This document shows positions 1 through 64,000 of a stretch of DNA of 64,000 nucleotides, piece by piece. Numbering within the stretch: position 1 is the first letter of the stretch; each line of letters starts with the position of its first letter. Source of the stretch: a virus (taxonomy: Duplodnaviria > Heunggongvirae > Uroviricota > Caudoviricetes); IMG/VR virus record IMGVR_UViG_2687453424_000001; one strand, 5' to 3'. Both the position numbers and the translations under genes were made by a program. The notes under the pieces were generated by a model that saw only the letters and a list, made by a program, of their open reading frames with translations, had not been told where the DNA came from and made no database searches.

Positions 1-280
1 ACCCACACCCACAACTGCCCCCAGTGACCCCAAAGAGACCTCTCAGACCCACAGCTGATGCCCAAATGATACCCCAGACCTACAACTGCCATCCAAGTGA
101 CCCTCCAGACCCACAAGTGCCCCCCACGTGACCCCAAAATAACTCCTCAGACCCACAACTGACCTACAAGTGATCCCAAGTGACCCCCATTACCTACAAC
201 TGCCCCCAAGGTGACCACCAAGTGACCCCCCAGACCCACAACTGCCCCCCCAGTGACCTCAAAGAGACCGCTCAGAACAT
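1..280. repeat. C/A-rich degenerate tandem minisatellite (units of roughly 25-45 bp built on cagacccacaactgcccccagtgacc)
   Basis: Direct reading: repeated variants of acccaca(a/g)ctgcccc..agtgacccc..agac across the first 280 bp. Confidence 0.6.
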
Positions 281-1086
281 GCTGCTCAGGCAGTAGACTT
301 GCAGCTGCTTTCCTATGTTAGGAAATTGAAATGACTTTTGCCTAGCTAGAAGGATGGGATTATTTAGTTTGCTTCTTGGATCAGTTTGAAGTCAAGATCC
401 TCACCTCTTTGTATACAGAGACAGAGGTTTGCACTCTGCAGAAGTGAAGATTCTGATGAGGTGAGGTGGTAAAAGGCAGAAGCTCCCTCCTGAATAGACT
501 TAATGCTCTGTAAACACCAATGTATTGAAACAGAAATGGAATCATAGGAAGGACTCTAAGACACTCAGATTTATTCCACAAGAAGGCTTCTTGTGCAAAC
601 ACGGCTCAGAATAAATCTGAACTCCAGCCTTTAAGTGCTACTTCCAAAAGAAACAGGGGAAAAATGGTCAAGAAGATTTTTAGAATTATTTCTTTTATGT
701 ATCTCGAGCTAATCAAAAGATCCAGATTGTTGCTGAGATGTTAAAACCAATGAACAGATCAGCTGTGTAATCAAAAGAGGTGCACGCACGACTCAAGAGA
801 GTTTCTCCTTCTTGCCTTTTTGTGCCAGGAGGCTGGTAATACCTTCTGACAGCCAAAGATCTCCGTGTCCTGACATACTGTCACTGGAGCTGTCTTTATT
901 TCCAGCCAAACAAGGGGCAGGACAACTGCACCCAGTGAACAGTAACCAATAAAAACTCTCCTTTGAATTAATGCCCTTTTGCACTTCAGGCCTGCCCTGA
1001 AATGTGAAGGCTCTTTATTTTGACCTTAGCCTGGTAAGCAGATGGGAAGTCACCCAAGTGTTTGCTCACATACCTAAAATAGGGAA

Positions 1087-1428
1087 ATGGGGCTTCTTTT
1101 GGTTAGTGCCTGTGTCACATCAGGCTGTTATGTTTTCATAGTGGGGTCCTATGTGCAGATCTTCAGGGCCGTGCTGAGGATCCCCTCTGAGCAGGGACCC
1201 CACAAAGCCTTTCCCACGTGCCTCCCTCACCTGGACGTGCTCTCCCTGTTTGTCAGCACTGGTACCTTTGCCTACCTAAAGCCCCTCTCCGTCTCCTCTG
1301 CCTCCCAGGATCTGGCTATGGTGGTGCTGTACTCAGTGTTGCCTCCAGCAGGAAACCCCCTCATCTGCAGCCTGAGAAACCAGGAGCTCAAGGATGCTCT
1401 GAGGAAGCTGGTGACCAGATGCGTTTGA
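1087..1428 (+). pseudogene. Olfactory receptor gene fragment (TM5-TM7 and C-terminus), 5'-truncated
   Basis: ORF translation has the OR C-terminal pattern (RIPSxxGxxKAF.TC..HL.V, NPLIxSLRN then K.AL.KL). The canonical NPLIY is NPLIC here, and an in-frame stop (taa 1075-1077) lies just upstream with no OR-like TM1-4 in any frame. Confidence 0.5.
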
Positions 1429-1773
1429 GCAGCCATACACTGCTTGCTTTACCCTGGAAACGGTTTCCATTGTAGATCATGACAGACCACGTCTGTCTTT
1501 GCTGCTTTACAGTTCTTTTCCTTTTTCCACTTGAGAAGTTGCTGTCTTCAAAAAAGGTCAGTTTTCATCACCTCCTACTTGTCTGACCCACAGACTTTGT
1601 ATCAATAGAGGTCCCTTTTTGTATGTAAGCACAATAAACCATCCTGCAGCAACTTCTCTGTGCTATGTACTCACATGGCAGGAATGAAAGGGAATGAAAT
1701 CAGCTTTCTGGCTGCTCCAGCTCTGGGATGGCTGCTCTGTGCCTGGAGCAGAAGAGCTCTTGGAGAGCCTGGC

Positions 1774-4700
1774 NNNNNNNNNNNNNNNNNNNNNNNNNNN
1801 NNNNNNNNNNNNNNNNNNNNNNNNNNNNNNNNNNNNNNNNNNNNNNNNNNNNNNNNNNNNNNNNNNNNNNNNNNNNNNNNNNNNNNNNNNNNNNNNNNNN
1901 NNNNNNNNNNNNNNNNNNNNNNNNNNNNNNNNNNNNNNNNNNNNNNNNNNNNNNNNNNNNNNNNNNNNNNNNNNNNNNNNNNNNNNNNNNNNNNNNNNNN
2001 NNNNNNNNNNNNNNNNNNNNNNNNNNNNNNNNNNNNNNNNNNNNNNNNNNNNNNNNNNNNNNNNNNNNNNNNNNNNNNNNNNNNNNNNNNNNNNNNNNNN
2101 NNNNNNNNNNNNNNNNNNNNNNNNNNNNNNNNNNNNNNNNNNNNNNNNNNNNNNNNNNNNNNNNNNNNNNNNNNNNNNNNNNNNNNNNNNNNNNNNNNNN
2201 NNNNNNNNNNNNNNNNNNNNNNNNNNNNNNNNNNNNNNNNNNNNNNNNNNNNNNNNNNNNNNNNNNNNNNNNNNNNNNNNNNNNNNNNNNNNNNNNNNNN
2301 NNNNNNNNNNNNNNNNNNNNNNNNNNNNNNNNNNNNNNNNNNNNNNNNNNNNNNNNNNNNNNNNNNNNNNNNNNNNNNNNNNNNNNNNNNNNNNNNNNNN
2401 NNNNNNNNNNNNNNNNNNNNNNNNNNNNNNNNNNNNNNNNNNNNNNNNNNNNNNNNNNNNNNNNNNNNNNNNNNNNNNNNNNNNNNNNNNNNNNNNNNNN
2501 NNNNNNNNNNNNNNNNNNNNNNNNNNNNNNNNNNNNNNNNNNNNNNNNNNNNNNNNNNNNNNNNNNNNNNNNNNNNNNNNNNNNNNNNNNNNNNNNNNNN
2601 NNNNNNNNNNNNNNNNNNNNNNNNNNNNNNNNNNNNNNNNNNNNNNNNNNNNNNNNNNNNNNNNNNNNNNNNNNNNNNNNNNNNNNNNNNNNNNNNNNNN
2701 NNNNNNNNNNNNNNNNNNNNNNNNNNNNNNNNNNNNNNNNNNNNNNNNNNNNNNNNNNNNNNNNNNNNNNNNNNNNNNNNNNNNNNNNNNNNNNNNNNNN
2801 NNNNNNNNNNNNNNNNNNNNNNNNNNNNNNNNNNNNNNNNNNNNNNNNNNNNNNNNNNNNNNNNNNNNNNNNNNNNNNNNNNNNNNNNNNNNNNNNNNNN
2901 NNNNNNNNNNNNNNNNNNNNNNNNNNNNNNNNNNNNNNNNNNNNNNNNNNNNNNNNNNNNNNNNNNNNNNNNNNNNNNNNNNNNNNNNNNNNNNNNNNNN
3001 NNNNNNNNNNNNNNNNNNNNNNNNNNNNNNNNNNNNNNNNNNNNNNNNNNNNNNNNNNNNNNNNNNNNNNNNNNNNNNNNNNNNNNNNNNNNNNNNNNNN
3101 NNNNNNNNNNNNNNNNNNNNNNNNNNNNNNNNNNNNNNNNNNNNNNNNNNNNNNNNNNNNNNNNNNNNNNNNNNNNNNNNNNNNNNNNNNNNNNNNNNNN
3201 NNNNNNNNNNNNNNNNNNNNNNNNNNNNNNNNNNNNNNNNNNNNNNNNNNNNNNNNNNNNNNNNNNNNNNNNNNNNNNNNNNNNNNNNNNNNNNNNNNNN
3301 NNNNNNNNNNNNNNNNNNNNNNNNNNNNNNNNNNNNNNNNNNNNNNNNNNNNNNNNNNNNNNNNNNNNNNNNNNNNNNNNNNNNNNNNNNNNNNNNNNNN
3401 NNNNNNNNNNNNNNNNNNNNNNNNNNNNNNNNNNNNNNNNNNNNNNNNNNNNNNNNNNNNNNNNNNNNNNNNNNNNNNNNNNNNNNNNNNNNNNNNNNNN
3501 NNNNNNNNNNNNNNNNNNNNNNNNNNNNNNNNNNNNNNNNNNNNNNNNNNNNNNNNNNNNNNNNNNNNNNNNNNNNNNNNNNNNNNNNNNNNNNNNNNNN
3601 NNNNNNNNNNNNNNNNNNNNNNNNNNNNNNNNNNNNNNNNNNNNNNNNNNNNNNNNNNNNNNNNNNNNNNNNNNNNNNNNNNNNNNNNNNNNNNNNNNNN
3701 NNNNNNNNNNNNNNNNNNNNNNNNNNNNNNNNNNNNNNNNNNNNNNNNNNNNNNNNNNNNNNNNNNNNNNNNNNNNNNNNNNNNNNNNNNNNNNNNNNNN
3801 NNNNNNNNNNNNNNNNNNNNNNNNNNNNNNNNNNNNNNNNNNNNNNNNNNNNNNNNNNNNNNNNNNNNNNNNNNNNNNNNNNNNNNNNNNNNNNNNNNNN
3901 NNNNNNNNNNNNNNNNNNNNNNNNNNNNNNNNNNNNNNNNNNNNNNNNNNNNNNNNNNNNNNNNNNNNNNNNNNNNNNNNNNNNNNNNNNNNNNNNNNNN
4001 NNNNNNNNNNNNNNNNNNNNNNNNNNNNNNNNNNNNNNNNNNNNNNNNNNNNNNNNNNNNNNNNNNNNNNNNNNNNNNNNNNNNNNNNNNNNNNNNNNNN
4101 NNNNNNNNNNNNNNNNNNNNNNNNNNNNNNNNNNNNNNNNNNNNNNNNNNNNNNNNNNNNNNNNNNNNNNNNNNNNNNNNNNNNNNNNNNNNNNNNNNNN
4201 NNNNNNNNNNNNNNNNNNNNNNNNNNNNNNNNNNNNNNNNNNNNNNNNNNNNNNNNNNNNNNNNNNNNNNNNNNNNNNNNNNNNNNNNNNNNNNNNNNNN
4301 NNNNNNNNNNNNNNNNNNNNNNNNNNNNNNNNNNNNNNNNNNNNNNNNNNNNNNNNNNNNNNNNNNNNNNNNNNNNNNNNNNNNNNNNNNNNNNNNNNNN
4401 NNNNNNNNNNNNNNNNNNNNNNNNNNNNNNNNNNNNNNNNNNNNNNNNNNNNNNNNNNNNNNNNNNNNNNNNNNNNNNNNNNNNNNNNNNNNNNNNNNNN
4501 NNNNNNNNNNNNNNNNNNNNNNNNNNNNNNNNNNNNNNNNNNNNNNNNNNNNNNNNNNNNNNNNNNNNNNNNNNNNNNNNNNNNNNNNNNNNNNNNNNNN
4601 NNNNNNNNNNNNNNNNNNNNNNNNNNNNNNNNNNNNNNNNNNNNNNNNNNNNNNNNNNNNNNNNNNNNNNNNNNNNNNNNNNNNNNNNNNNNNNNNNNNN

Positions 4701-6838
4701 NNNNNNNNNNNNNNNNNNNNNNNNNNNNNNNNNNNNNNNNNNNNNNNNNNNNNNNNNNNNNNNNNNNNNNNNNNNNNNNNNNNNNNNNNNNNNNNNNNNN
4801 NNNNNNNNNNNNNNNNNNNNNNNNNNNNNNNNNNNNNNNNNNNNNNNNNNNNNNNNNNNNNNNNNNNNNNNNNNNNNNNNNNNNNNNNNNNNNNNNNNNN
4901 NNNNNNNNNNNNNNNNNNNNNNNNNNNNNNNNNNNNNNNNNNNNNNNNNNNNNNNNNNNNNNNNNNNNNNNNNNNNNNNNNNNNNNNNNNNNNNNNNNNN
5001 NNNNNNNNNNNNNNNNNNNNNNNNNNNNNNNNNNNNNNNNNNNNNNNNNNNNNNNNNNNNNNNNNNNNNNNNNNNNNNNNNNNNNNNNNNNNNNNNNNNN
5101 NNNNNNNNNNNNNNNNNNNNNNNNNNNNNNNNNNNNNNNNNNNNNNNNNNNNNNNNNNNNNNNNNNNNNNNNNNNNNNNNNNNNNNNNNNNNNNNNNNNN
5201 NNNNNNNNNNNNNNNNNNNNNNNNNNNNNNNNNNNNNNNNNNNNNNNNNNNNNNNNNNNNNNNNNNNNNNNNNNNNNNNNNNNNNNNNNNNNNNNNNNNN
5301 NNNNNNNNNNNNNNNNNNNNNNNNNNNNNNNNNNNNNNNNNNNNNNNNNNNNNNNNNNNNNNNNNNNNNNNNNNNNNNNNNNNNNNNNNNNNNNNNNNNN
5401 NNNNNNNNNNNNNNNNNNNNNNNNNNNNNNNNNNNNNNNNNNNNNNNNNNNNNNNNNNNNNNNNNNNNNNNNNNNNNNNNNNNNNNNNNNNNNNNNNNNN
5501 NNNNNNNNNNNNNNNNNNNNNNNNNNNNNNNNNNNNNNNNNNNNNNNNNNNNNNNNNNNNNNNNNNNNNNNNNNNNNNNNNNNNNNNNNNNNNNNNNNNN
5601 NNNNNNNNNNNNNNNNNNNNNNNNNNNNNNNNNNNNNNNNNNNNNNNNNNNNNNNNNNNNNNNNNNNNNNNNNNNNNNNNNNNNNNNNNNNNNNNNNNNN
5701 NNNNNNNNNNNNNNNNNNNNNNNNNNNNNNNNNNNNNNNNNNNNNNNNNNNNNNNNNNNNNNNNNNNNNNNNNNNNNNNNNNNNNNNNNNNNNNNNNNNN
5801 NNNNNNNNNNNNNNNNNNNNNNNNNNNNNNNNNNNNNNNNNNNNNNNNNNNNNNNNNNNNNNNNNNNNNNNNNNNNNNNNNNNNNNNNNNNNNNNNNNNN
5901 NNNNNNNNNNNNNNNNNNNNNNNNNNNNNNNNNNNNNNNNNNNNNNNNNNNNNNNNNNNNNNNNNNNNNNNNNNNNNNNNNNNNNNNNNNNNNNNNNNNN
6001 NNNNNNNNNNNNNNNNNNNNNNNNNNNNNNNNNNNNNNNNNNNNNNNNNNNNNNNNNNNNNNNNNNNNNNNNNNNNNNNNNNNNNNNNNNNNNNNNNNNN
6101 NNNNNNNNNNNNNNNNNNNNNNNNNNNNNNNNNNNNNNNNNNNNNNNNNNNNNNNNNNNNNNNNNNNNNNNNNNNNNNNNNNNNNNNNNNNNNNNNNNNN
6201 NNNNNNNNNNNNNNNNNNNNNNNNNNNNNNNNNNNNNNNNNNNNNNNNNNNNNNNNNNNNNNNNNNNNNNNNNNNNNNNNNNNNNNNNNNNNNNNNNNNN
6301 NNNNNNNNNNNNNNNNNNNNNNNNNNNNNNNNNNNNNNNNNNNNNNNNNNNNNNNNNNNNNNNNNNNNNNNNNNNNNNNNNNNNNNNNNNNNNNNNNNNN
6401 NNNNNNNNNNNNNNNNNNNNNNNNNNNNNNNNNNNNNNNNNNNNNNNNNNNNNNNNNNNNNNNNNNNNNNNNNNNNNNNNNNNNNNNNNNNNNNNNNNNN
6501 NNNNNNNNNNNNNNNNNNNNNNNNNNNNNNNNNNNNNNNNNNNNNNNNNNNNNNNNNNNNNNNNNNNNNNNNNNNNNNNNNNNNNNNNNNNNNNNNNNNN
6601 NNNNNNNNNNNNNNNNNNNNNNNNNNNNNNNNNNNNNNNNNNNNNNNNNNNNNNNNNNNNNNNNNNNNNNNNNNNNNNNNNNNNNNNNNNNNNNNNNNNN
6701 NNNNNNNNNNNNNNNNNNNNNNNNNNNNNNNNNNNNNNNNNNNNNNNNNNNNNNNNNNNNNNNNNNNNNNNNNNNNNNNNNNNNNNNNNNNNNNNNNNNN
6801 NNNNNNNNNNNNNNNNNNNNNNNNNNNNNNNNNNNNNN
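1774..6838. other. N-run (assembly gap or masked sequence), 5065 nt
   Basis: Uninterrupted n characters. Confidence 1.
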
Positions 6839-6899
6839 TTTTCCAACTCAGACTGAATCAAGCCTTGAACAATTTGCTCTGACCCTGTTCCTGATGGGT

Positions 6900-7335
6900 T
6901 AGACTTGAGAACTCCTGGGGTCCTTTCCAACCTCTGCTCTCTTATGATCCAACAATGATGGGTTTATGAAGAGTCACAAAAATGCTCCAAGGGCTGGAGC
7001 ACATCTCTGATGAAGACAGGCTGAGAGAGCTGGGGATGTTCAGCCTGGAGAAGACAAGGTTCCAGGGATACATCTTAGCAAGCTGCCCATTTCTAAACAC
7101 GGCCTACAAGAAATCTGGACAGGGGCTTTTTACAAGTGTGTGCAATTACAGGAGAAGGGGAGATGGCTTTGAGCTGAAAGAGGGGGATTTAGATCAGACA
7201 TTAGGAAGGAATTCTTCCCTGTGACAGTGGTGGGACACTGGCACAGGGTGCCCAGAGAAGCTGTGGCTGCCCCGTCCCCGGCAATGTTCAAGGCAAGGTT
7301 GGACACAGGGGCTTGGAGCAACCTGCTCTAGTGGA
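6900..7335 (+). mobile_element. CR1 LINE 3'-end fragments (ORF2 C-terminus and 3' tail)
   Basis: ORF 6982..7224 reads LEHISDEDRLRELGMFSLEK...GDGFELKEG, and the following frame reads VVGHWHRVPREAVAAPSPAMFKARLD, matching the conserved CR1 ORF2 C-terminus ([22 protein letters not shown] ... RVVRHWNRLPREVV..PSLEVFK). 6900-6955 carries a CR1-tail-like ggtcctttccaacc...tatgatcc motif. Confidence 0.7.
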
Positions 7336-7470
7336 CCACCATAAAACACCTCCATAACACCCAGAAACACCTGTGAAACACCTCAAAAATAACCCCAAAC
7401 CACTCCTACAACTGCCGAAGGACACCTTGAAACATCCCCAGAGCCCCCAAAACACCATTGGCATCCTCCA
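7336..7470. repeat. C/A-rich low-complexity repeat (aacacc/aaacacctc units)
   Basis: Direct reading: repeated (a)aacacct motifs. Confidence 0.4.
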
Positions 7471-7979
7471 AACCATTCAGGTCCTTGTCTTCCCCCTGCT
7501 GTGATGCCGTGGCATAAATCAAACCCTAGACACAAAATCCCTGTTCTTGACCCTAATTTTAACCCTCACTGATTTTTATAATGTTATAATATTGTAATAG
7601 AATGTAAGTAAATTATCTATTATAATAATAGAAATGCTTGTCTGTCTATATTACTATTATAAATTATACACTAATATAAATGCTTTTCAGTCCAGTGGGC
7701 CCATGACACCTCAGGTCATAGAAACTGGCCTGAAGGGATGCGTTGCTGCTTGGGTTGGGCTGGGTGTCGCTCAGAACATGCTGAACAATTGCATTGGGCA
7801 TCACTGTCGCTATAGGTCCTTTCTTTTCCCTTTTGGTTCTGTATCTCTCCCCTTGTTGTTTCCATTCTTATTAATAACAATAACACTAATATTACATTGT
7901 GCTTGATTTCAGTTCCTGACCTGTTCTCATCTCCACCTGTGGGTTTCACATTGTTCCCATTCTCCCCCCTATCCCACGC

Positions 7980-8462
7980 GGGTGCTGAGCGAGCGGCTGC
8001 TGGTGCTGAGTTCCCGGCTGGGTTTCAACACTGCCCCTGTCCTGGCCCCTTTGCTGTGGCAGCAGGGGCTGGACGTTTGCACTCTTGGAGCTGGGCTCTT
8101 TGTATGGGCACGCAGCTGGAAGCAGCATTCTTTGGCTCAGGAAGCGCAGCTCCCCAGTGTTGCTGGGGCTGGGGCAGTGCTTGCCAAGGGCAGGGGAGGC
8201 CCAGCAACAGCTCCTGTCCTGGCCCTGCTGCTGGGGGAGCAGAGGGGCTCCCGCGGGCATTGCCGCAGTCAGGATTGCGCAGGTGTGCCCAGAGCCCACC
8301 AGCTCCTTCCCACCTTGCGCAATGCCCGCTGGGCTTCTGGGCTGTGCCTGCGCCTGCCAGGGCCTTTGTCACCTTCCAGAATGCATTGGCAGAGCCCAGC
8401 AGAGCACTGGAGCCTTGCGCAATGCCCGCCGCTGGCCTGGCCTTTACCAGAGCCCAGCGGCA
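7980..8462. repeat. GC-rich satellite-like repeat (unit ~100-140 bp with gcaatgccc and ccttccagaatg cores)
   Basis: ccttgcgcaatgcccgc occurs at 8313 and 8414, and ccttccagaatg at 8372. The same family recurs at 12290-13000, on the other side of the N-run. Confidence 0.5.
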
Positions 8463-11400
8463 NNNNNNNNNNNNNNNNNNNNNNNNNNNNNNNNNNNNNN
8501 NNNNNNNNNNNNNNNNNNNNNNNNNNNNNNNNNNNNNNNNNNNNNNNNNNNNNNNNNNNNNNNNNNNNNNNNNNNNNNNNNNNNNNNNNNNNNNNNNNNN
8601 NNNNNNNNNNNNNNNNNNNNNNNNNNNNNNNNNNNNNNNNNNNNNNNNNNNNNNNNNNNNNNNNNNNNNNNNNNNNNNNNNNNNNNNNNNNNNNNNNNNN
8701 NNNNNNNNNNNNNNNNNNNNNNNNNNNNNNNNNNNNNNNNNNNNNNNNNNNNNNNNNNNNNNNNNNNNNNNNNNNNNNNNNNNNNNNNNNNNNNNNNNNN
8801 NNNNNNNNNNNNNNNNNNNNNNNNNNNNNNNNNNNNNNNNNNNNNNNNNNNNNNNNNNNNNNNNNNNNNNNNNNNNNNNNNNNNNNNNNNNNNNNNNNNN
8901 NNNNNNNNNNNNNNNNNNNNNNNNNNNNNNNNNNNNNNNNNNNNNNNNNNNNNNNNNNNNNNNNNNNNNNNNNNNNNNNNNNNNNNNNNNNNNNNNNNNN
9001 NNNNNNNNNNNNNNNNNNNNNNNNNNNNNNNNNNNNNNNNNNNNNNNNNNNNNNNNNNNNNNNNNNNNNNNNNNNNNNNNNNNNNNNNNNNNNNNNNNNN
9101 NNNNNNNNNNNNNNNNNNNNNNNNNNNNNNNNNNNNNNNNNNNNNNNNNNNNNNNNNNNNNNNNNNNNNNNNNNNNNNNNNNNNNNNNNNNNNNNNNNNN
9201 NNNNNNNNNNNNNNNNNNNNNNNNNNNNNNNNNNNNNNNNNNNNNNNNNNNNNNNNNNNNNNNNNNNNNNNNNNNNNNNNNNNNNNNNNNNNNNNNNNNN
9301 NNNNNNNNNNNNNNNNNNNNNNNNNNNNNNNNNNNNNNNNNNNNNNNNNNNNNNNNNNNNNNNNNNNNNNNNNNNNNNNNNNNNNNNNNNNNNNNNNNNN
9401 NNNNNNNNNNNNNNNNNNNNNNNNNNNNNNNNNNNNNNNNNNNNNNNNNNNNNNNNNNNNNNNNNNNNNNNNNNNNNNNNNNNNNNNNNNNNNNNNNNNN
9501 NNNNNNNNNNNNNNNNNNNNNNNNNNNNNNNNNNNNNNNNNNNNNNNNNNNNNNNNNNNNNNNNNNNNNNNNNNNNNNNNNNNNNNNNNNNNNNNNNNNN
9601 NNNNNNNNNNNNNNNNNNNNNNNNNNNNNNNNNNNNNNNNNNNNNNNNNNNNNNNNNNNNNNNNNNNNNNNNNNNNNNNNNNNNNNNNNNNNNNNNNNNN
9701 NNNNNNNNNNNNNNNNNNNNNNNNNNNNNNNNNNNNNNNNNNNNNNNNNNNNNNNNNNNNNNNNNNNNNNNNNNNNNNNNNNNNNNNNNNNNNNNNNNNN
9801 NNNNNNNNNNNNNNNNNNNNNNNNNNNNNNNNNNNNNNNNNNNNNNNNNNNNNNNNNNNNNNNNNNNNNNNNNNNNNNNNNNNNNNNNNNNNNNNNNNNN
9901 NNNNNNNNNNNNNNNNNNNNNNNNNNNNNNNNNNNNNNNNNNNNNNNNNNNNNNNNNNNNNNNNNNNNNNNNNNNNNNNNNNNNNNNNNNNNNNNNNNNN
10001 NNNNNNNNNNNNNNNNNNNNNNNNNNNNNNNNNNNNNNNNNNNNNNNNNNNNNNNNNNNNNNNNNNNNNNNNNNNNNNNNNNNNNNNNNNNNNNNNNNNN
10101 NNNNNNNNNNNNNNNNNNNNNNNNNNNNNNNNNNNNNNNNNNNNNNNNNNNNNNNNNNNNNNNNNNNNNNNNNNNNNNNNNNNNNNNNNNNNNNNNNNNN
10201 NNNNNNNNNNNNNNNNNNNNNNNNNNNNNNNNNNNNNNNNNNNNNNNNNNNNNNNNNNNNNNNNNNNNNNNNNNNNNNNNNNNNNNNNNNNNNNNNNNNN
10301 NNNNNNNNNNNNNNNNNNNNNNNNNNNNNNNNNNNNNNNNNNNNNNNNNNNNNNNNNNNNNNNNNNNNNNNNNNNNNNNNNNNNNNNNNNNNNNNNNNNN
10401 NNNNNNNNNNNNNNNNNNNNNNNNNNNNNNNNNNNNNNNNNNNNNNNNNNNNNNNNNNNNNNNNNNNNNNNNNNNNNNNNNNNNNNNNNNNNNNNNNNNN
10501 NNNNNNNNNNNNNNNNNNNNNNNNNNNNNNNNNNNNNNNNNNNNNNNNNNNNNNNNNNNNNNNNNNNNNNNNNNNNNNNNNNNNNNNNNNNNNNNNNNNN
10601 NNNNNNNNNNNNNNNNNNNNNNNNNNNNNNNNNNNNNNNNNNNNNNNNNNNNNNNNNNNNNNNNNNNNNNNNNNNNNNNNNNNNNNNNNNNNNNNNNNNN
10701 NNNNNNNNNNNNNNNNNNNNNNNNNNNNNNNNNNNNNNNNNNNNNNNNNNNNNNNNNNNNNNNNNNNNNNNNNNNNNNNNNNNNNNNNNNNNNNNNNNNN
10801 NNNNNNNNNNNNNNNNNNNNNNNNNNNNNNNNNNNNNNNNNNNNNNNNNNNNNNNNNNNNNNNNNNNNNNNNNNNNNNNNNNNNNNNNNNNNNNNNNNNN
10901 NNNNNNNNNNNNNNNNNNNNNNNNNNNNNNNNNNNNNNNNNNNNNNNNNNNNNNNNNNNNNNNNNNNNNNNNNNNNNNNNNNNNNNNNNNNNNNNNNNNN
11001 NNNNNNNNNNNNNNNNNNNNNNNNNNNNNNNNNNNNNNNNNNNNNNNNNNNNNNNNNNNNNNNNNNNNNNNNNNNNNNNNNNNNNNNNNNNNNNNNNNNN
11101 NNNNNNNNNNNNNNNNNNNNNNNNNNNNNNNNNNNNNNNNNNNNNNNNNNNNNNNNNNNNNNNNNNNNNNNNNNNNNNNNNNNNNNNNNNNNNNNNNNNN
11201 NNNNNNNNNNNNNNNNNNNNNNNNNNNNNNNNNNNNNNNNNNNNNNNNNNNNNNNNNNNNNNNNNNNNNNNNNNNNNNNNNNNNNNNNNNNNNNNNNNNN
11301 NNNNNNNNNNNNNNNNNNNNNNNNNNNNNNNNNNNNNNNNNNNNNNNNNNNNNNNNNNNNNNNNNNNNNNNNNNNNNNNNNNNNNNNNNNNNNNNNNNNN

Positions 11401-12042
11401 NNNNNNNNNNNNNNNNNNNNNNNNNNNNNNNNNNNNNNNNNNNNNNNNNNNNNNNNNNNNNNNNNNNNNNNNNNNNNNNNNNNNNNNNNNNNNNNNNNNN
11501 NNNNNNNNNNNNNNNNNNNNNNNNNNNNNNNNNNNNNNNNNNNNNNNNNNNNNNNNNNNNNNNNNNNNNNNNNNNNNNNNNNNNNNNNNNNNNNNNNNNN
11601 NNNNNNNNNNNNNNNNNNNNNNNNNNNNNNNNNNNNNNNNNNNNNNNNNNNNNNNNNNNNNNNNNNNNNNNNNNNNNNNNNNNNNNNNNNNNNNNNNNNN
11701 NNNNNNNNNNNNNNNNNNNNNNNNNNNNNNNNNNNNNNNNNNNNNNNNNNNNNNNNNNNNNNNNNNNNNNNNNNNNNNNNNNNNNNNNNNNNNNNNNNNN
11801 NNNNNNNNNNNNNNNNNNNNNNNNNNNNNNNNNNNNNNNNNNNNNNNNNNNNNNNNNNNNNNNNNNNNNNNNNNNNNNNNNNNNNNNNNNNNNNNNNNNN
11901 NNNNNNNNNNNNNNNNNNNNNNNNNNNNNNNNNNNNNNNNNNNNNNNNNNNNNNNNNNNNNNNNNNNNNNNNNNNNNNNNNNNNNNNNNNNNNNNNNNNN
12001 NNNNNNNNNNNNNNNNNNNNNNNNNNNNNNNNNNNNNNNNNN
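8463..12042. other. N-run, 3580 nt
   Basis: Uninterrupted n characters, flanked on both sides by the same repeat family. Confidence 1.
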
Positions 12043-12124
12043 CCTGCGAGGGGTCACAGCTCAGCCTGGGCAATGGAACAGGGCATCACGGCCACCGACG
12101 AGAAGTGAAGAGTGACCGACATTG

Positions 12125-12290
12125 GCACAGCAGAAAATCATGGAATCCCAGACAGGGCTGGACTGGAAGGGAACTTAAAGCTCCTCCAATCCACTGCCAT
12201 GGGTAGGGACATCTTCCACTAGAACAGTTTACTCCAACCTCTGTCCAACCTGGTCTTGAACACTGCCAGAGTTGGAAGTCACTGATTAAT
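12125..12290. mobile_element. Avian interspersed repeat fragment (LTR-like family common in bird genomes; classification uncertain)
   Basis: Motifs ggaagggaacttaaag...ccactgccatgggtagggacatcttccactag...ccaacctggtcttgaacactgcc match a repeat I recognise from many bird loci. A second copy lies at 28585-28680. Confidence 0.4.
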
Positions 12291-43935: not shown

Positions 43936-43947
43936 TTTTTTTAAGGC

Positions 43948-44202
43948 CATAGGCAAGGTGAGTTTACACGCGCCATTGTATATCGCGTTCCTACACGCCT
44001 GCCGGTTGGCGACATCAGCCGGCAACATGAGAATGGAAATGGCGGCGATGGAGAGCCCGAAAACGACGACGAATTTGGGGAAATACGCTTGGTTAGCGTC
44101 GTCCGGGTGCTGGTAATTGACGAGGAGGTAGACATTGAAGAGGAACACTAGGACGCATACGATTATGGCGACGATTACCAGAGCGAGGTTGAAATCGCCC
44201 AT
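43948..44202 (-). CDS. Plant LMBR1-like membrane protein, first coding exon, truncated by the vector junction
   Basis: Minus-strand translation from ATG at 44202..44200 reads MGDFNLALVIVAIIVCVLVFLFNVYLLVNYQHPDDANQAYFPKFVVVFGLSIAAISILMLPADVANRQACRNAIYNGACKLTLPM, which I recall as the conserved N-terminus of plant LMBR1-like proteins. Similarity stops where cat-downstream vector sequence begins (~43946). Confidence 0.6.
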
Positions 44203-55200: not shown

Positions 55201-55463
55201 CATGTGGATCTAGGTAACTACTTTGCATCCTCACCTTTTTTACACGAAAGGTTGCTTTGGAAATAGTCTAGCTTCATTCTTAACCCTGCTCCCAATTTAC
55301 AACAGCAGGCTGTTCATCACCCTTAATGGTTCCCAGAACTTGAAATTTGCTCCTATCTGATGTTGTGCTGTAACTGATCTTTTGCAGAATCGCAGAGGCT
55401 GCTGGAACTTGCCCCATTTGCCGTCGGAACATGAAGAAAGTGAGGAAGATTTTCACAGTATAA
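52235..55463 (+). CDS. Plant APD-like transmembrane RING-type (C3HC4) E3 ubiquitin ligase gene, predicted 10 exons, ~488 aa
   Basis: Manual gene model: exons 52235..52568, 52680..52786, 52896..53021 (GC donor), 53111..53204, 53342..53416, 53494..53576, 54315..54461, 54701..54773, 54862..55213, 55388..55463, total 1467 nt in frame. Acceptors are AG and donors GT apart from one GCAAGT. The C-terminus carries RING motif [41 protein letters not shown] split by the last intron; hydrophobic segments and a Ser/Ala-rich N-terminus are present. Individual splice boundaries are less certain than the gene call. Confidence 0.7.
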
Positions 55464-56742
55464 GTCACATTGAGCTCCTTTGCCAGCAGCAGAGCTTGCA
55501 CAGCCTGCCTGCTTCAATGAGTTGCAGTACGTTTTTGATGGGTCACTGCTTTTTATGCTCAAGTAAATGACACTCAGAAGGGGGATTATAAGCATTGATT
55601 TTTTTTAAAAGATGGAAGGAGCCATGCATTTTGTTTCCCTGGATGGCCTTCCACCATGTAATACTATCATCGGTACATAATGTTCGAGTAGACCAAGTCA
55701 AAGCTTCCAATGTAACTCTTTTCATTTCCCCCCCATTGATTACCAATTTAAGGCGCAGCAACTTCAAACTGAGATACTGTACCTTCCTGTCCTTCATTCT
55801 TTGGTATCTTTCAGCCTTCTCAACAGCATCAAGTAAACGACTAATCCAATCCCGTTTTTAATGCTTTTAGAGTATTTCTTACTATATTTTTTAATATTAT
55901 ATTCGAACATTTAATTCAATAATAAATATAAATATCTTTTTATTTAAAAAATAAAGTCGAATCCTTTATTAAAAAAAAAAAGGGTTCGGATGTCTTTTTT
56001 TTTAAATAAATAAAATTCAAATTTAATCAAAACTTAATCAATTTGTTTTATATTACAGTTTTAAAAAACAATAGTAAATCTCATAATAATTATGCATTAG
56101 AATAAAATTAAATATTTAACTGTTTTGATTATAATAAATTAAGGATGAAATGACAGGAGGGAGAAGGAAGATTTGCTTCTTTTTCTTTTTTCCACGAGGA
56201 AGTGGACTGGCGGAAAGAGAGTCAAAGCCATAGTTGACAGAAGTTGCAGTAGACAAGTTCGAGAAGCTTTCCTTTTCCTTTCTCTATTTCCCCCCACCTT
56301 CTGAACGTGGGGATCAAGATAACTATGGCCAACAAGATTGGAAACGAGCGGCGGCCTTCACTGCCTTCCTCCCAGCCTCTTAATATACTTTCTTTTTTCC
56401 CATCCCTGTTTTTGGCCCACCGCTTCTTCAGACCATGGTCATAATCATGACAGTGACATCAAAGTCAAAATTTTATTGTTAATAAAATATAACCTAATGT
56501 TTTTAGTCAACAGATTAATTGAACTAACTTTGACTACTTTATTTAACGAATTGCACAAAATCAACCAAGTTCGAGCTAGTTTATAATTAATTTATTCATA
56601 TTATTAGTTAAATTTAATTAAGTAAAATTGTGATATTTTATAATTTGATTCGAATAAGTTTTAAATTAAAAAATTAGGTTTGGACAATGATCACAAAATA
56701 TTTGTTTTTCGAATTTGATTATAAATGTTATTTTTAATAATT

Positions 56743-59700
56743 NNNNNNNNNNNNNNNNNNNNNNNNNNNNNNNNNNNNNNNNNNNNNNNNNNNNNNNNNN
56801 NNNNNNNNNNNNNNNNNNNNNNNNNNNNNNNNNNNNNNNNNNNNNNNNNNNNNNNNNNNNNNNNNNNNNNNNNNNNNNNNNNNNNNNNNNNNNNNNNNNN
56901 NNNNNNNNNNNNNNNNNNNNNNNNNNNNNNNNNNNNNNNNNNNNNNNNNNNNNNNNNNNNNNNNNNNNNNNNNNNNNNNNNNNNNNNNNNNNNNNNNNNN
57001 NNNNNNNNNNNNNNNNNNNNNNNNNNNNNNNNNNNNNNNNNNNNNNNNNNNNNNNNNNNNNNNNNNNNNNNNNNNNNNNNNNNNNNNNNNNNNNNNNNNN
57101 NNNNNNNNNNNNNNNNNNNNNNNNNNNNNNNNNNNNNNNNNNNNNNNNNNNNNNNNNNNNNNNNNNNNNNNNNNNNNNNNNNNNNNNNNNNNNNNNNNNN
57201 NNNNNNNNNNNNNNNNNNNNNNNNNNNNNNNNNNNNNNNNNNNNNNNNNNNNNNNNNNNNNNNNNNNNNNNNNNNNNNNNNNNNNNNNNNNNNNNNNNNN
57301 NNNNNNNNNNNNNNNNNNNNNNNNNNNNNNNNNNNNNNNNNNNNNNNNNNNNNNNNNNNNNNNNNNNNNNNNNNNNNNNNNNNNNNNNNNNNNNNNNNNN
57401 NNNNNNNNNNNNNNNNNNNNNNNNNNNNNNNNNNNNNNNNNNNNNNNNNNNNNNNNNNNNNNNNNNNNNNNNNNNNNNNNNNNNNNNNNNNNNNNNNNNN
57501 NNNNNNNNNNNNNNNNNNNNNNNNNNNNNNNNNNNNNNNNNNNNNNNNNNNNNNNNNNNNNNNNNNNNNNNNNNNNNNNNNNNNNNNNNNNNNNNNNNNN
57601 NNNNNNNNNNNNNNNNNNNNNNNNNNNNNNNNNNNNNNNNNNNNNNNNNNNNNNNNNNNNNNNNNNNNNNNNNNNNNNNNNNNNNNNNNNNNNNNNNNNN
57701 NNNNNNNNNNNNNNNNNNNNNNNNNNNNNNNNNNNNNNNNNNNNNNNNNNNNNNNNNNNNNNNNNNNNNNNNNNNNNNNNNNNNNNNNNNNNNNNNNNNN
57801 NNNNNNNNNNNNNNNNNNNNNNNNNNNNNNNNNNNNNNNNNNNNNNNNNNNNNNNNNNNNNNNNNNNNNNNNNNNNNNNNNNNNNNNNNNNNNNNNNNNN
57901 NNNNNNNNNNNNNNNNNNNNNNNNNNNNNNNNNNNNNNNNNNNNNNNNNNNNNNNNNNNNNNNNNNNNNNNNNNNNNNNNNNNNNNNNNNNNNNNNNNNN
58001 NNNNNNNNNNNNNNNNNNNNNNNNNNNNNNNNNNNNNNNNNNNNNNNNNNNNNNNNNNNNNNNNNNNNNNNNNNNNNNNNNNNNNNNNNNNNNNNNNNNN
58101 NNNNNNNNNNNNNNNNNNNNNNNNNNNNNNNNNNNNNNNNNNNNNNNNNNNNNNNNNNNNNNNNNNNNNNNNNNNNNNNNNNNNNNNNNNNNNNNNNNNN
58201 NNNNNNNNNNNNNNNNNNNNNNNNNNNNNNNNNNNNNNNNNNNNNNNNNNNNNNNNNNNNNNNNNNNNNNNNNNNNNNNNNNNNNNNNNNNNNNNNNNNN
58301 NNNNNNNNNNNNNNNNNNNNNNNNNNNNNNNNNNNNNNNNNNNNNNNNNNNNNNNNNNNNNNNNNNNNNNNNNNNNNNNNNNNNNNNNNNNNNNNNNNNN
58401 NNNNNNNNNNNNNNNNNNNNNNNNNNNNNNNNNNNNNNNNNNNNNNNNNNNNNNNNNNNNNNNNNNNNNNNNNNNNNNNNNNNNNNNNNNNNNNNNNNNN
58501 NNNNNNNNNNNNNNNNNNNNNNNNNNNNNNNNNNNNNNNNNNNNNNNNNNNNNNNNNNNNNNNNNNNNNNNNNNNNNNNNNNNNNNNNNNNNNNNNNNNN
58601 NNNNNNNNNNNNNNNNNNNNNNNNNNNNNNNNNNNNNNNNNNNNNNNNNNNNNNNNNNNNNNNNNNNNNNNNNNNNNNNNNNNNNNNNNNNNNNNNNNNN
58701 NNNNNNNNNNNNNNNNNNNNNNNNNNNNNNNNNNNNNNNNNNNNNNNNNNNNNNNNNNNNNNNNNNNNNNNNNNNNNNNNNNNNNNNNNNNNNNNNNNNN
58801 NNNNNNNNNNNNNNNNNNNNNNNNNNNNNNNNNNNNNNNNNNNNNNNNNNNNNNNNNNNNNNNNNNNNNNNNNNNNNNNNNNNNNNNNNNNNNNNNNNNN
58901 NNNNNNNNNNNNNNNNNNNNNNNNNNNNNNNNNNNNNNNNNNNNNNNNNNNNNNNNNNNNNNNNNNNNNNNNNNNNNNNNNNNNNNNNNNNNNNNNNNNN
59001 NNNNNNNNNNNNNNNNNNNNNNNNNNNNNNNNNNNNNNNNNNNNNNNNNNNNNNNNNNNNNNNNNNNNNNNNNNNNNNNNNNNNNNNNNNNNNNNNNNNN
59101 NNNNNNNNNNNNNNNNNNNNNNNNNNNNNNNNNNNNNNNNNNNNNNNNNNNNNNNNNNNNNNNNNNNNNNNNNNNNNNNNNNNNNNNNNNNNNNNNNNNN
59201 NNNNNNNNNNNNNNNNNNNNNNNNNNNNNNNNNNNNNNNNNNNNNNNNNNNNNNNNNNNNNNNNNNNNNNNNNNNNNNNNNNNNNNNNNNNNNNNNNNNN
59301 NNNNNNNNNNNNNNNNNNNNNNNNNNNNNNNNNNNNNNNNNNNNNNNNNNNNNNNNNNNNNNNNNNNNNNNNNNNNNNNNNNNNNNNNNNNNNNNNNNNN
59401 NNNNNNNNNNNNNNNNNNNNNNNNNNNNNNNNNNNNNNNNNNNNNNNNNNNNNNNNNNNNNNNNNNNNNNNNNNNNNNNNNNNNNNNNNNNNNNNNNNNN
59501 NNNNNNNNNNNNNNNNNNNNNNNNNNNNNNNNNNNNNNNNNNNNNNNNNNNNNNNNNNNNNNNNNNNNNNNNNNNNNNNNNNNNNNNNNNNNNNNNNNNN
59601 NNNNNNNNNNNNNNNNNNNNNNNNNNNNNNNNNNNNNNNNNNNNNNNNNNNNNNNNNNNNNNNNNNNNNNNNNNNNNNNNNNNNNNNNNNNNNNNNNNNN

Positions 59701-60502
59701 NNNNNNNNNNNNNNNNNNNNNNNNNNNNNNNNNNNNNNNNNNNNNNNNNNNNNNNNNNNNNNNNNNNNNNNNNNNNNNNNNNNNNNNNNNNNNNNNNNNN
59801 NNNNNNNNNNNNNNNNNNNNNNNNNNNNNNNNNNNNNNNNNNNNNNNNNNNNNNNNNNNNNNNNNNNNNNNNNNNNNNNNNNNNNNNNNNNNNNNNNNNN
59901 NNNNNNNNNNNNNNNNNNNNNNNNNNNNNNNNNNNNNNNNNNNNNNNNNNNNNNNNNNNNNNNNNNNNNNNNNNNNNNNNNNNNNNNNNNNNNNNNNNNN
60001 NNNNNNNNNNNNNNNNNNNNNNNNNNNNNNNNNNNNNNNNNNNNNNNNNNNNNNNNNNNNNNNNNNNNNNNNNNNNNNNNNNNNNNNNNNNNNNNNNNNN
60101 NNNNNNNNNNNNNNNNNNNNNNNNNNNNNNNNNNNNNNNNNNNNNNNNNNNNNNNNNNNNNNNNNNNNNNNNNNNNNNNNNNNNNNNNNNNNNNNNNNNN
60201 NNNNNNNNNNNNNNNNNNNNNNNNNNNNNNNNNNNNNNNNNNNNNNNNNNNNNNNNNNNNNNNNNNNNNNNNNNNNNNNNNNNNNNNNNNNNNNNNNNNN
60301 NNNNNNNNNNNNNNNNNNNNNNNNNNNNNNNNNNNNNNNNNNNNNNNNNNNNNNNNNNNNNNNNNNNNNNNNNNNNNNNNNNNNNNNNNNNNNNNNNNNN
60401 NNNNNNNNNNNNNNNNNNNNNNNNNNNNNNNNNNNNNNNNNNNNNNNNNNNNNNNNNNNNNNNNNNNNNNNNNNNNNNNNNNNNNNNNNNNNNNNNNNNN
60501 NN
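56743..60502. other. N-run, 3760 nt
   Basis: Uninterrupted n characters. Confidence 1.
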
Positions 60503-61171
60503 AATTATTTTAAATTTGAATTTTTATGAATATTGGTAATTAAATTTGAATGTTAAATATATTAATTGAATTCGGGTAAACTATATAATTAAATTTTAAT
60601 GGAATTCGGGCATCTATTTGGTGATATTCTTTAAGTCTTTCTTAAAAAAAAGAAAAACAATTAAGGGCAAATAAAGTACAATTAATTATTTGCCATTAAC
60701 AGCTTAAAATAATCAAATGCGGAGAAAGACTGCTGTGCCGCTACTTCCAACGAATGAATGGAAACCCGCCTTCCCACGTCAGCACACTTTCCCCGAACCG
60801 GGGTTTTCGCATAGCGAAATTGCGTGGCCTCCAACCCTACTATACACTATGTCTGAATCTCCTTTTAAGATTGCTTGAAACCTCTATCTCCACCGTCCGA
60901 TGGAAATATCATTTACCAGGATGAACATCGTAGGCCAAATCAGGAAGAGTGTACGTAAACTAACCCACAGGGTAAGTCTCCTCACTTCCAAGCAAGAACC
61001 ATTCAAAACTCTCGTCTACTTAAACCTATCTCTCGCCACCTTCTCTGCTTCGCCTCTTCTCTCCCAATTCCTTCAATTATCTTCTATTTGGGTTTTGTTT
61101 TTGGATTTTGATCTTTCCATTTGCAAAGGAAAAAAGCTCGTCTCTCTTTCTGTTTCTGTAGCTTTTTGGGT

Positions 61172-62101
61172 ATGGCAGGAACCGGGGTGGTTGCTGTTTA
61201 TGGAAACGGGGCGATAACCGAAACCCACAAGTCTCCTTTCTCAGTGAAAGTTGGGTTGGCGCAAATGCTCCGAGGCGGGGTCATCATGGACGTGGTCACC
61301 CCGGAACAAGCCCGCATCGCTGAAGAAGCGGGAGCCTGCGCCGTCATGGCTCTCGAGCGAGTCCCGGCCGATATCCGAGCTCAAGGCGGTGTGGCCCGAA
61401 TGAGTGATCCACAACTCATCAAGGAAATTAAGCAAGCGGTTACTATCCCCGTCATGGCTAAGGCCCGTATTGGTCATTTCGTTGAGGCCCAGATCCTTGA
61501 AGCCATCGGAATCGATTATGTTGACGAGAGCGAAGTGCTTACCCCAGCCGACGAAGAGAACCACATTAACAAACATAATTTTCGGATTCCTTTCGTTTGC
61601 GGGTGTCGGAATTTGGGGGAAGCGCTTCGGAGGATCCGGGAAGGAGCTGCTATGATTCGAACCAAAGGAGAAGCTGGGACCGGCAACATTATCGAAGCCG
61701 TTAGGCACGTGAGGTCCGTGATGGGAGACATTAGGGTGCTTAGAAACATGGATGATGATGAGGTTTTCAGCTTCGCTAAGAAAATTCAGTCCCCATACGA
61801 TTTGGTCATGCAGACGAAGCAACTGGGGAGGTTGCCCGTGGTGCACTTTGCTGCCGGAGGAGTGGCGACGCCGGCTGATGCGGCGTTGATGATGCAGTTG
61901 GGCTGCGATGGAGTGTTTGTGGGGTCTGGGGTTTTTAAGAGTGGTGACCCGGCGAGACGGGCCCGGGCTATTGTCCAGGCCGTCACTCATTATAGTGACC
62001 CGGACGTGCTTGCTGAAGTTAGCTGTGGGCTTGGTGAGGCTATGGTTGGTCTTAATTTGAATGATAAGAAGGTTGAGAGGTTCGCGGCTCGGTCTGAATA
62101 A
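61172..62101 (+). CDS. PDX1: Plant pyridoxal 5'-phosphate synthase subunit PDX1 (SNZ/PdxS family), intronless, 309 aa
   Basis: Uninterrupted ORF; from [42 protein letters not shown]... to ...VERFAARSE it is near-identical to plant PDX1 as I recall it (Arabidopsis PDX1.3). The track ORF starts 17 codons upstream at 61121, but the conserved start is the Met at 61172. Confidence 0.9.
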
Positions 62102-63817
62102 TGTGTTTGAAGCTTTTCGGGCTACGTGGAGGTGAGAAATTCCACTGTTATTATATTTAATTTTTGTCTTTTTTAAGCGTTTAAGCTTGAAAATTTGATG
62201 GTATATAATGTATTTGATTTTTAAGTTGAATAATTTTTGTCTAGTAGTGAACTTTCTACTGTTCTTTTATTGGTTTTTGTATGTCAAATTTCTGAATTGG
62301 GAAATGGATTGGGTTATTAGCCGTGAATGGGGTATGACTGCTTTGTTTCTCTTTGGTGACATCAATGGTGATTCTTTATGCAAATAGTAAAGCTGCCTGC
62401 TAAAGTGATGAGTTTTTGAGAGATACTTGGCTTTCCTGTTCTTTTCGTATTGTTTACGCATACATAGCTTTGGATTCTACTATACTTTCCCGATTTTCAA
62501 CATAGTTTGGTGACGATTTGGACTGCACCATTTTGATTATAATAAGTTGTTGATGCATTTCATTGAACTTCTACTGTGATGTTTTGTTGTCATATTCTTT
62601 TGTTACAATTTTGAAGTAGTTGGGAGGTAGTGATTGATAGCAAAAGGTGACTTGATGTTACTGGATTTTGACATAAATGATACTACTATAACATGCTTCC
62701 AAAGTGATGCTTGTAGTTAGTTGAGCTTCTGAATGTGAAGTCATTTATTCATTCCTCCCAATTTGTCCACTTGATGCTGGTATATTGGATTTTTGTTGTT
62801 AGTTTTTTGCTTTCTGCCGAATGCTTCATACGTTACTTGCTTTTGATATTTGAGCAATGTTTTGAAGCATTCATCATTGTGGAGAGGTTTTGATTGCCTT
62901 TGCAGGAATCCTTTCACCATGGGACTGGTACCATCGCCTGCATTATGTGCACTTTTTCCAGATTATGCAAGTCAAAAGTGTAGTTTTTGATACAGTGGGG
63001 TGTACCTTTATGTCTAAATGGATGTTTTCGATAAACTCTGCTGTTTCGTTATCTCTTTTAAGATTGCTAGGAATTATAACAGCTTGTCTCTGCATTCTGC
63101 AAGTATACTCATGTAATTTTTCGTTAATTAGGCTCTACAGAAACTTTACCTGCATTTTCAGATGGTATTGGTCCATGGTTTAAGTGGCTTTGCTGGTTAC
63201 CAAATTTTCTTTTTGTTCCATCTTGATGCATGTATGCTATCCTACCTGCTGAATAAAATTTTCCATTACTTGGTCATCTAGCCTGTAATTATTTTTGTTG
63301 CTGGTAGCCCCCTGGTTTTTCCTCCTAGGAGAATCTCCCTGATGAAAAGCATACAAGACTAGTGCATAGACACTTCATATACTGTTTTAATTGAGATGAG
63401 TTATAGCCTTATTTTCAAACCCGAAAACCAGATCTGATCTGAAATTAGCTTGAACCTGAAATGACTTTGAACTTGTAATGTTCTGAATCTATAATTCAAA
63501 ACGATCCAATCTACTTCTTCTAACAGAAATGAGATTCCTACTTTAATAAGCCATTTCTCTCAACTAAACATGTAAACATGTTGTAATTGGGGATGACGGA
63601 CGGAAAGGTGGGTGGGGTTATGTGCTGCTGGTTTTAAACAAGATTTCCCCATTAAAACATGTTGCGAAGAAGAGGCATATGAATTCAATAAAAAGATCTC
63701 AGAACTCTGAAGCTAACATGAGCGAATTACAACAAACAGAAACTTGCTGATTAGCAAGGCTCGTAACTACTTCACAATTAGTAAAAACTTGAGCAGAAAC
63801 GACTCTAGCTCCTCAAA

Positions 63818-64000
63818 TTACTCTTTGCCCACGGCTTGTAAGAGAAGGAGCAATTGAAAAAAGTAGTACGAAGCACCCCCAAGCGTAGCATATTGCAACT
63901 TTTCAGGTCCTTCCACTTCCGGGAAATCACCATCTGCAGCACGATTGAATCCTCCGGCCAACCACCCCAAGTTCTTGTATCCTCCCTCGTATAACTTTGA
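63818..64000 (-). CDS. Possible 3'-terminal coding exon of a plant gene running off the window edge (rhodanese-like C-terminus?)
   Basis: Minus-strand frame open from the window edge to a stop at 63820..63818: SKLYEGGYKNLGWLAGGFNRAADGDFPEVEGPEKLQYATLGGASYYFFQLLLLLQAVGKE*. Resembles the end of a rhodanese-like domain followed by a hydrophobic tail; weak recollection only. Confidence 0.3.
   Translation of the reverse strand, partial: SKLYEGGYKNLGWLAGGFNRAADGDFPEVEGPEKLQYATLGGASYYFFQLLLLLQAVGKE

Follow-up and report, generated by a model that had tools for sequence, protein, structure and literature searches.

Bird contigs, a cloning vector and cacao chromosome 5 DNA in one gapped 64-kb stretch: a probable assembly and contamination artefact

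The 64,000-nucleotide stretch of IMG/VR virus record IMGVR_UViG_2687453424_000001 (the whole stretch analysed, hereafter the window) raises the question of how DNA of a bird, of a bacterial artificial chromosome (BAC) cloning vector and of a plant came to stand end to end in one sequence. An earlier note, made from the letters alone, had proposed three compartments of incompatible origin and read the whole as a chimeric or contaminated scaffold. The compartments are confirmed by their avian, vector and cacao (Theobroma cacao) identities, and the scaffold reading is supported by these incompatible origins together with blunt joins away from the cloning site and mis-sized gaps. The arrangement is an assembly and contamination artefact, and not a natural piece of any genome. 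Very probably, the window is a section of a heavily gapped draft scaffold that chains genuine bird contigs to a laboratory contaminant, a BAC clone with an insert from chromosome 5 of cacao cultivar (cv.) Matina 1-6. Its relevance lies in data quality and database hygiene and not in biology. Gene models, synteny or horizontal-transfer claims drawn across the compartments would be false, for example a 'bird PDX1', a 'bird chloramphenicol-resistance gene' or plant genes beside olfactory receptors.

Composition of the window and the cacao insert

The window divides into a bird compartment (1-28757), a vector compartment (28758-43947) and a cacao compartment (43948-64000). GC content, which the earlier note had proposed to compare among them, differs (49.6%, 46.1% and 37.1%, respectively), and the observed/expected CpG ratios are 0.20, 0.96 and 0.72, the bird part being depleted in CpG. 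The sequence is not continuous. N fills 36,354 of the 64,000 positions (57%) in nine runs (1774-6838, 8463-12042, 14879-20259, 21512-21531, 22074-27718, 29436-33845, 38811-43161, 45379-49520 and 56743-60502), and ten contigs of 0.5-7.2 kb make up the rest, with six contig pieces in the bird compartment, three in the vector and three in the cacao. Both compartment junctions are within contigs (27719-29435 and 43162-45378), neither being at an N gap. This gapped, ten-contig structure had gone unmentioned before, and it alters how the 'compartments' should be read.

The three cacao contigs match sequence CM001883.1 of assembly GCA_000403535.1 at about 0.82-0.84 Mb, in reversed orientation. This sequence is taken here to be chromosome 5 of cv. 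Matina 1-6. The identities are 99.72%, 99.89% and 100% (1431, 7222 and 3498 bases, respectively). Like those of the vector, they greatly exceed what chance would give. In a comparison that included five other cacao/Herrania assemblies, the others gave 96-99.4% identity, and for a single contig one of them equals GCA_000403535.1. Over 12.1 kb, no true base substitution separates the window from the Matina 1-6 reference. The seven differences are all homopolymer-associated, six of them in run length and one a swapped base pair beside a T run. Judged by sequence, these figures identify the plant contigs to cultivar, as Matina 1-6, and the restriction of the differences to homopolymers points to a chemistry prone to homopolymer errors, such as pyrosequencing.

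The gene content and order of this part agree with the same locus. The earlier note had recognised PDX1, an APD-like RING E3 gene and an LMBR1-like exon here, and all three are recovered. PDX1 (pyridoxal phosphate synthase subunit) lies on the plus strand at 61172-62101 as an intronless gene of 309 amino acids (Pfam SOR_SNZ, E = 3e-113). The APD-type RING E3 ligase gene, also on the plus strand, is multi-exon and occupies 52235-56305, these coordinates being approximate and transferred from CM001883.1. Its RING exon is seen directly within 54837-55217 (Pfam zf-C3HC4_3 on an open reading frame (ORF) of the window). The APD domains are known from the identical cacao locus, where the annotation lists APD1-4_N, APD1-4_M and zf-C3HC4_3. 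On the minus strand at 43948-44202 is the first coding exon of an LMBR1-like gene, cut by the join to the vector (Pfam LMBR1, E = 1.5e-14), and LMBR1 is annotated at the same place in cacao.

An exact look-up of the PDX1 protein returned six records only, all of them chromosome-scale or multi-megabase assemblies, which are taken to be from Theobroma cacao and Herrania. In all six the gene order is LMBR1 (-), APD-type RING E3 (+), PDX1 (+), rhodanese (-) and symplekin (+). The window has the same local order, with LMBR1 (-), APD RING E3 (+), PDX1 (+) and rhodanese at its end. By transferred cacao annotation, it is the 3' end of the rhodanese-domain gene that enters on the minus strand near the window end (63818-64000). 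The gene set, order and orientation are thus identical to those of the Matina 1-6 CM001883.1 locus, at 99.7-100% identity. The window differs from that locus in that pieces of 53 and 24 bases are replaced by kilobase-long N runs, and in that the LMBR1-like exon is cut at the vector join. The public Matina assembly has no gap across the locus, which is found at 0.82 Mb in that assembly, counted from the chromosome end, and at 0.74 Mb in the Criollo assembly of the same chromosome.

The vector and its lineage

The visible vector amounts to 6429 bases, with a further 216 hidden in gaps. Positions 33846-38810 are identical at 4965 of 4965 bases to three small mini-F laboratory plasmids (pMiniF records), and the F plasmid itself is 100% identical over 4863 bases. 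The part from cos to sopC is identical to a pCC1-type vector at 678 of 678 bases, and the cat part is likewise 100% identical to that vector. Two fosmid-sized records with a pCC1-type vector, CP036489.1 and NZ_CP104070.1, match the window from position 28758 across cos and on into sopC, in one case at 100% and in the other with one mismatch, and match it again in the cat segment.

An F-plasmid BAC backbone with cos, sopC/B/A, incC, repE, ori2, resD and cat had been read from the letters, and it holds up on the cos match, ORFs, iterons, repeats and the Pfam Phage_integrase domain. At the junction with the bird part is a lambda cos fragment (28758-29105, minus strand), whose 348 bases are a 100% match to lambda and whose cosN is found near 28888-28901. 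It ends about 65 bp short in comparison with related vectors and stands next to sopC, an adjacency identical to that in CP036489.1. The sopC centromere repeats (29122-34020, minus strand) are built of 43-bp units (Tandem Repeats Finder (TRF) period 43), are collinear with the pMiniF and pCC1-type records, and are split by the gap 29436-33845. They are followed by intact minus-strand ORFs for sopB (ParB-type partition protein, 34106-35077, 323 amino acids), sopA (partition ATPase, 35077-36252) and repE (replication initiator, 36831-37586, 251 amino acids), all named from the annotation of 100% identical records. Between sopA and repE, five iterons (36578-36834; direct-repeat family D1) are presumably incC, following established mini-F anatomy, and the four iterons of ori2 lie at 37679-37777 (direct-repeat family D2). 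Ori2, repE, incC, sopA, sopB and sopC are therefore all present, in vector order. A resD remnant at 38360-38707 (minus strand) is a tyrosine recombinase fragment (Pfam Phage_integrase, E = 3e-14), annotated as tyrosine recombinase/resolvase in CP036489.1 and in another matching record (L002). At 34098 and 35323 the base of the window is that of the F plasmid and the mini-F plasmids, and differs from the pCC1-type record CP036489.1.

The chloramphenicol acetyltransferase gene of Tn9, cat, is an intact plus-strand ORF at 43276-43935, and an exact look-up of its protein returned bacterial records only. It carries a silent C>T change at 43494 that converts GAATTC to GAATTT, so that an EcoRI site is lost. 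The change is common to the pCC1-type vector and is not found in pMiniF, and it makes a handy marker separating this vector lineage from natural Tn9 cat. A natural F plasmid with Tn9 is ruled out by the lambda cos fragment and this engineered cat mutation. Another candidate, a pCC1-type vector, is ruled out by a block of about 616 bp that CP036489.1 and NZ_CP104070.1 carry between ori2 and resD and that is absent from the window. The block is presumably the oriV high-copy origin. Because it is absent, the backbone is of the older pBeloBAC11/pIndigoBAC type. The loss of the EcoRI site in cat is likewise taken to be a mark of the pIndigoBAC/pECBAC lineage. This agrees with the unique EcoRI cloning site of pIndigoBAC536, a vector of 7507 bp with cosN, loxP and unique HindIII, BamHI and EcoRI sites (PMC3213141).

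The compartment resembles pIndigoBAC536/pBeloBAC11 in having ori2, repE, incC and sopA/B/C collinear with mini-F at 100%, cos beside sopC, an EcoRI-less cat and no oriV. It differs from vectors of this type in lacking about 860 bp, namely the terminal part of the lambda fragment (roughly 65 bp), loxP, lacZ-alpha, the whole cloning site and the cat 3' flank. A search of the window for loxP, lacZ/M13 primer sites, T7, SP6 and NotI motifs found none, and the vector is therefore represented by a fragment and not in whole. The exact vector may be pIndigoBAC536 rather than pECBAC1, pIndigoBAC-5 or another sibling.

The two fosmid-sized records are themselves of note. CP036489.1 (Rahnella aquatilis) and NZ_CP104070.1 (Alicyclobacillus fastidiosus) are public 'plasmids' of 49 and 40 kb, each with a complete pCC1-type fosmid/BAC vector (cos, loxP, lacZ), and they resemble contaminating cloned DNA that was submitted as if it were natural plasmids.

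Gap sizes and the source of the contaminant

The vector and cacao references are collinear with the window across all four gaps of the foreign part, so the true size of each gap can be read directly. The gap at 29436-33845 is written as 4410 N where 215 real bases are missing, comprising five sopC repeat units (excess 4195). That at 38811-43161 is written as 4351 N where a single base is missing (excess 4350), one A of the A run where the cat-gene segment begins. Its flanks are positions 15479 and 15481 of CP036489.1, and 2113 and 2111 of the matching record L001. In the cacao part, the gaps at 45379-49520 (4142 N, 53 bases missing from AT-rich, homopolymer-rich DNA) and 56743-60502 (3760 N, 24 bases missing from AT-rich DNA) are too long by 4089 and 3736, respectively. 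The possibility that N runs mask real sequence of equal length is ruled out by this collinearity, only 1-215 bases being missing. The four are genuine contig breaks and not masking, because they fall where assemblers typically fail. Overlapping contig ends were tested for across all nine gaps of the window, and none was found.

The excess in the four gaps is near-constant, at about 3.7-4.4 kb. This would be expected if the spacing of the linking mates fell about 4 kb below the library size that the scaffolder assumed, and a 3-kb paired library read as one of roughly 7-8 kb would explain it, on circumstantial grounds. Gaps so grossly mis-sized are typical of faulty scaffolding. The five gaps of the bird part may be as unreliable as these four, and N-run lengths in such scaffolds can be off by kilobases.

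A published project offers a candidate source. Three Matina 1-6 BAC libraries (HindIII, MboI and EcoRI) were built in pIndigoBAC536 (PMC3173454), and 27 BACs drawn from all three form a tiling path across a contig of the physical map that spans about 3 Mb and belongs to the distal end of linkage group 5 (PMC3154204, PMC3173454). This pool was run on 454 Titanium with both linear libraries and 3-kb paired-end ones (Feltus et al. 2011, PMC3154204), and the pseudomolecule assembled from it aligned to Criollo Tc05 over the initial 3.5 Mb (PMC3154204). The foreign part of the window is like the pool in cultivar, vector family, chromosome end and homopolymer-error chemistry, and the 3-kb paired library of the pool would give over-long gaps if mistaken for a larger one. 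The 454-sequenced Matina 1-6 BAC pool of 2011 is a plausible, unproven source of the contaminant. Literature searches found nothing specific on cacao contamination of a bird genome, nor on any bird genome from the facility that sequenced the cacao BAC pool.

The same pool bears on a reading of reversed polarity, in which a plant or BAC project produced the record and it is the bird DNA that contaminates it. This very region was assembled from pooled BACs with a scaffolding assembler (PMC3154204), only 64 kb of the record are visible, and the cacao part, with contigs (7.2 and 3.5 kb) larger than those of the bird part, continues up to position 64000. However, the paired library of the published pool was a 3-kb one (PMC3154204) and cannot span gaps of 3.6-5.6 kb, the public Matina assembly is gap-free at the locus, so that the window is not from that record, and the exact PDX1 look-up gave only chromosome-scale cacao/Herrania records, none with this structure. 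A plant or BAC project as the origin of the record is on balance quite improbable.

With a bird project contaminated by a cacao BAC as the preferred reading, the window can be compared with the contamination surveyed by Conterminator (PMC7218494). As outlined in that survey, such cases share with the window the presence of DNA of another kingdom and of cloning vector inside a scaffold labelled as one organism. The window differs from the cases so outlined in that its contaminant is joined within contigs and not carried on a separate small contig, and in that it can be traced by sequence alone to cultivar, chromosome region and vector lineage. Removal of the foreign part from the record is called for, as is a screen of the remaining assembly for further sequence of cacao chromosome 5 and of the BAC vector.

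The two junctions and the bird part

The first junction lies exactly where the earlier note had placed it, at 28757/28758, the lambda/vector match beginning at 28758. Here a telomere-like repeat switches to lambda at a point from which related vectors continue for about 65 more lambda bases and then loxP. The junction falls inside the cos fragment, in the loop of a perfect inverted repeat with arms of 15 bp, GAAAGGAAACGACAG and CTGTCGTTTCCTTTC. The second junction is equally real, and only its position, given before as 43946/43947, has to be moved by a single nucleotide, 43947 being the last base of the vector and 43948 the first of cacao. On the vector side it is 12 nt past the cat stop codon and about 370 bp before the cloning site, and on the cacao side it is inside the first coding exon of the LMBR1-like gene. 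Across this join the vector would read on 'AGTTATTGG...', and the cacao reference reads '...GATCCTT' just before it.

Neither join lies at the HindIII, BamHI or EcoRI site of the vector with a matching site in the insert, as a genuine insert-vector junction of a BAC would. No HindIII or EcoRI site is near junction 2, and the nearest cacao GATC (MboI) begins 7 nt outside it. A normal cloning junction of an MboI clone was considered for junction 2 and rejected on this offset and on the position of the vector side off the cloning site. Both joins are blunt, with no bases shared between the partners. The absence of shared bases means that they are neither cloning junctions nor overlap-driven mis-joins. 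Being blunt, without homology and off the cloning site, they are therefore neither normal clone junctions nor plausible natural insertions. Likely, either chimeric reads gave rise to them or contig ends were bluntly concatenated.

The following course of events would account for these features. BAC DNA or reads from a shotgun-sequenced clone, most probably produced by pyrosequencing, would have entered the read set of a bird whole-genome project. The assembler would have made short contigs from them, breaking at homopolymers, in AT-rich low-complexity DNA and in the sopC tandem repeat. Mate pairs would then have chained the contigs, with gaps about 4 kb too long since the true spacing was about 4 kb under the assumed library size. 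Finally, chimeric reads or contig-end joins would have fused a bird contig end with telomere-like repeats to the middle of the vector cos fragment, and the sequence 3' of cat to the interior of a cacao exon.

Several points weigh against this account. A join made by a single chimeric read would be indistinguishable, in the sequence alone, from a real molecule, and a blunt join inside a contig is usually not what an overlap-based assembler makes without a supporting read. The assignment of one organism as 'host' and the other as 'contaminant' is itself inferred. The link to the BAC pool is circumstantial, being drawn from cultivar, vector type, chromosome region and error type, and Matina 1-6 BACs were handled in several laboratories. 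Additionally, bird contig 20260-21511 begins exactly with AAGCTT, a HindIII site (20260-20265) and the sole cloning-enzyme site among the 18 contig ends, which hints that cloned DNA may be involved on the bird side too. It may be the trace of a clone end in bird DNA.

This site bears on another arrangement, in which two different BACs, carrying bird and cacao inserts, respectively, were co-sequenced and the assembler collapsed their common vector, walking from bird through vector to cacao. The bird DNA would then be clone-derived as well. A common vector is a classic bridging repeat, and gaps of 3.6-5.6 kb in the bird part are in the size class of the demonstrably wrong gaps of the foreign part. 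However, such a walk does not explain why neither junction is at a cloning site, why the entire lacZ/cloning-site/loxP block is absent, or why the bird side of junction 1 is a telomere-like repeat and not a restriction site. Two BACs sequenced together are a rather unlikely origin.

The blunt, homology-free form of the joins, as in non-homologous end joining, their position inside contigs and not at N gaps, and the telomere-like repeats at junction 1 would also suit a real molecule, either a cacao BAC integrated near a telomere in bird cells or a rearranged Escherichia coli clone with both DNAs. Against such a molecule stand the zero true substitutions relative to the cultivar reference or the vector, scaffolding errors in the foreign part that are typical of a minor contaminant, and exact-match scans for both junction strings, which found no match in a prokaryotic genome collection or a metagenome collection. 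No experiment is known to have put a cacao BAC into a bird. A real molecule is thus extremely improbable. Equally hard to credit is that a BAC with cacao chromosome 5 DNA was joined to a bird chromosome end or telomere tract by end joining, whether in transfected cells or in the preparation of a jumping library. The preferred reading remains that of bird contigs chained to a contaminant clone.

The bird part consists of six contigs on the N map (1-1773, 6839-8462, 12043-14878, 20260-21511, 21532-22073 and 27719-28757), separated by N runs of 5065, 3580, 5381, 20 and 5645. The 20-N gap (21512-21531), the sole one of its kind among bird-part gaps of 3.6-5.6 kb, looks like a fixed minimum gap length of the assembler. 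CR1 long interspersed nuclear elements (LINEs) and an olfactory-receptor fragment had been claimed for this part, and both are upheld by avian homologues, the receptor also by Pfam 7tm_4.

The receptor fragment is OR14J1-like and lies on the plus strand at 1087-1428. It is truncated, covering profile positions 180-277 of 280 in Pfam 7tm_4. The best 120 of 1375 matches are all bird OR14-type receptors, a family expanded in birds, at 66-79% identity. The best match is to kea, at only 72% identity, the top receptor matches being put at 72-79%. No receptor sequence was found upstream in any frame. Because only the C-terminal third is present and nothing of the receptor precedes it, the piece is probably a pseudogene fragment.

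CR1 LINE fragments are present in at least four copies. Those with the typical 3' end agree with avian nuclear DNA, although CR1 is also found in other reptiles and so is not bird-specific alone. At 27919-28470 (plus strand) are the ORF2 C-terminus, the 3' untranslated region and a terminal ATTCTATG-type repeat (sequence end '...attctatgattctacaattcta'). The translated C-terminus of this copy has more than 6000 homologues, all the named ones being from birds, and on this search the CR1 copies are not species-specific. A 3' fragment with ORF2 C-terminal motifs ('LEHISDEDRLRELGMFSLEK...' and '...PREAVAAPSPAMFKARLD' in translation) lies on the plus strand at 6970-7328, and 6970-7328 and 28029-28349 have 73% DNA identity. 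The 3' end fragment at 14415-14687 (plus strand, '...LPTEVVLSPSLAVFKRR...' in translation) is presumably also CR1, by resemblance of its motifs. On the minus strand at 20532-20978 is an ORF2 fragment from just upstream of the reverse-transcriptase core ('...FFKKGKMDEPGNYRPVSLTF' in translation), for which a Pfam search gave no match because the fragment ends before the reverse-transcriptase domain.

A degenerate telomere array of the vertebrate type, (TTAGGG)n, occupies 21685-22018 on the plus strand (about 335 bp and 51 units; TRF period 6, 51.3 copies), with 32 matches to TTAGGGTTAGGG vs 0.19 expected. Short degenerate telomere-like repeats, seen by TRF and in motif counts, form the bird side of junction 1 (28670-28757, plus strand). 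The two may represent an interstitial array, a chromosome end or a pile-up of telomeric reads. Near junction 1, 'ttctctgctgg' occurs twice, with TTAGGG between the two copies. At the other end of the bird part, positions 39-262 are tandemly repeated, the nested periods being about 31, 42 and 83 bp.

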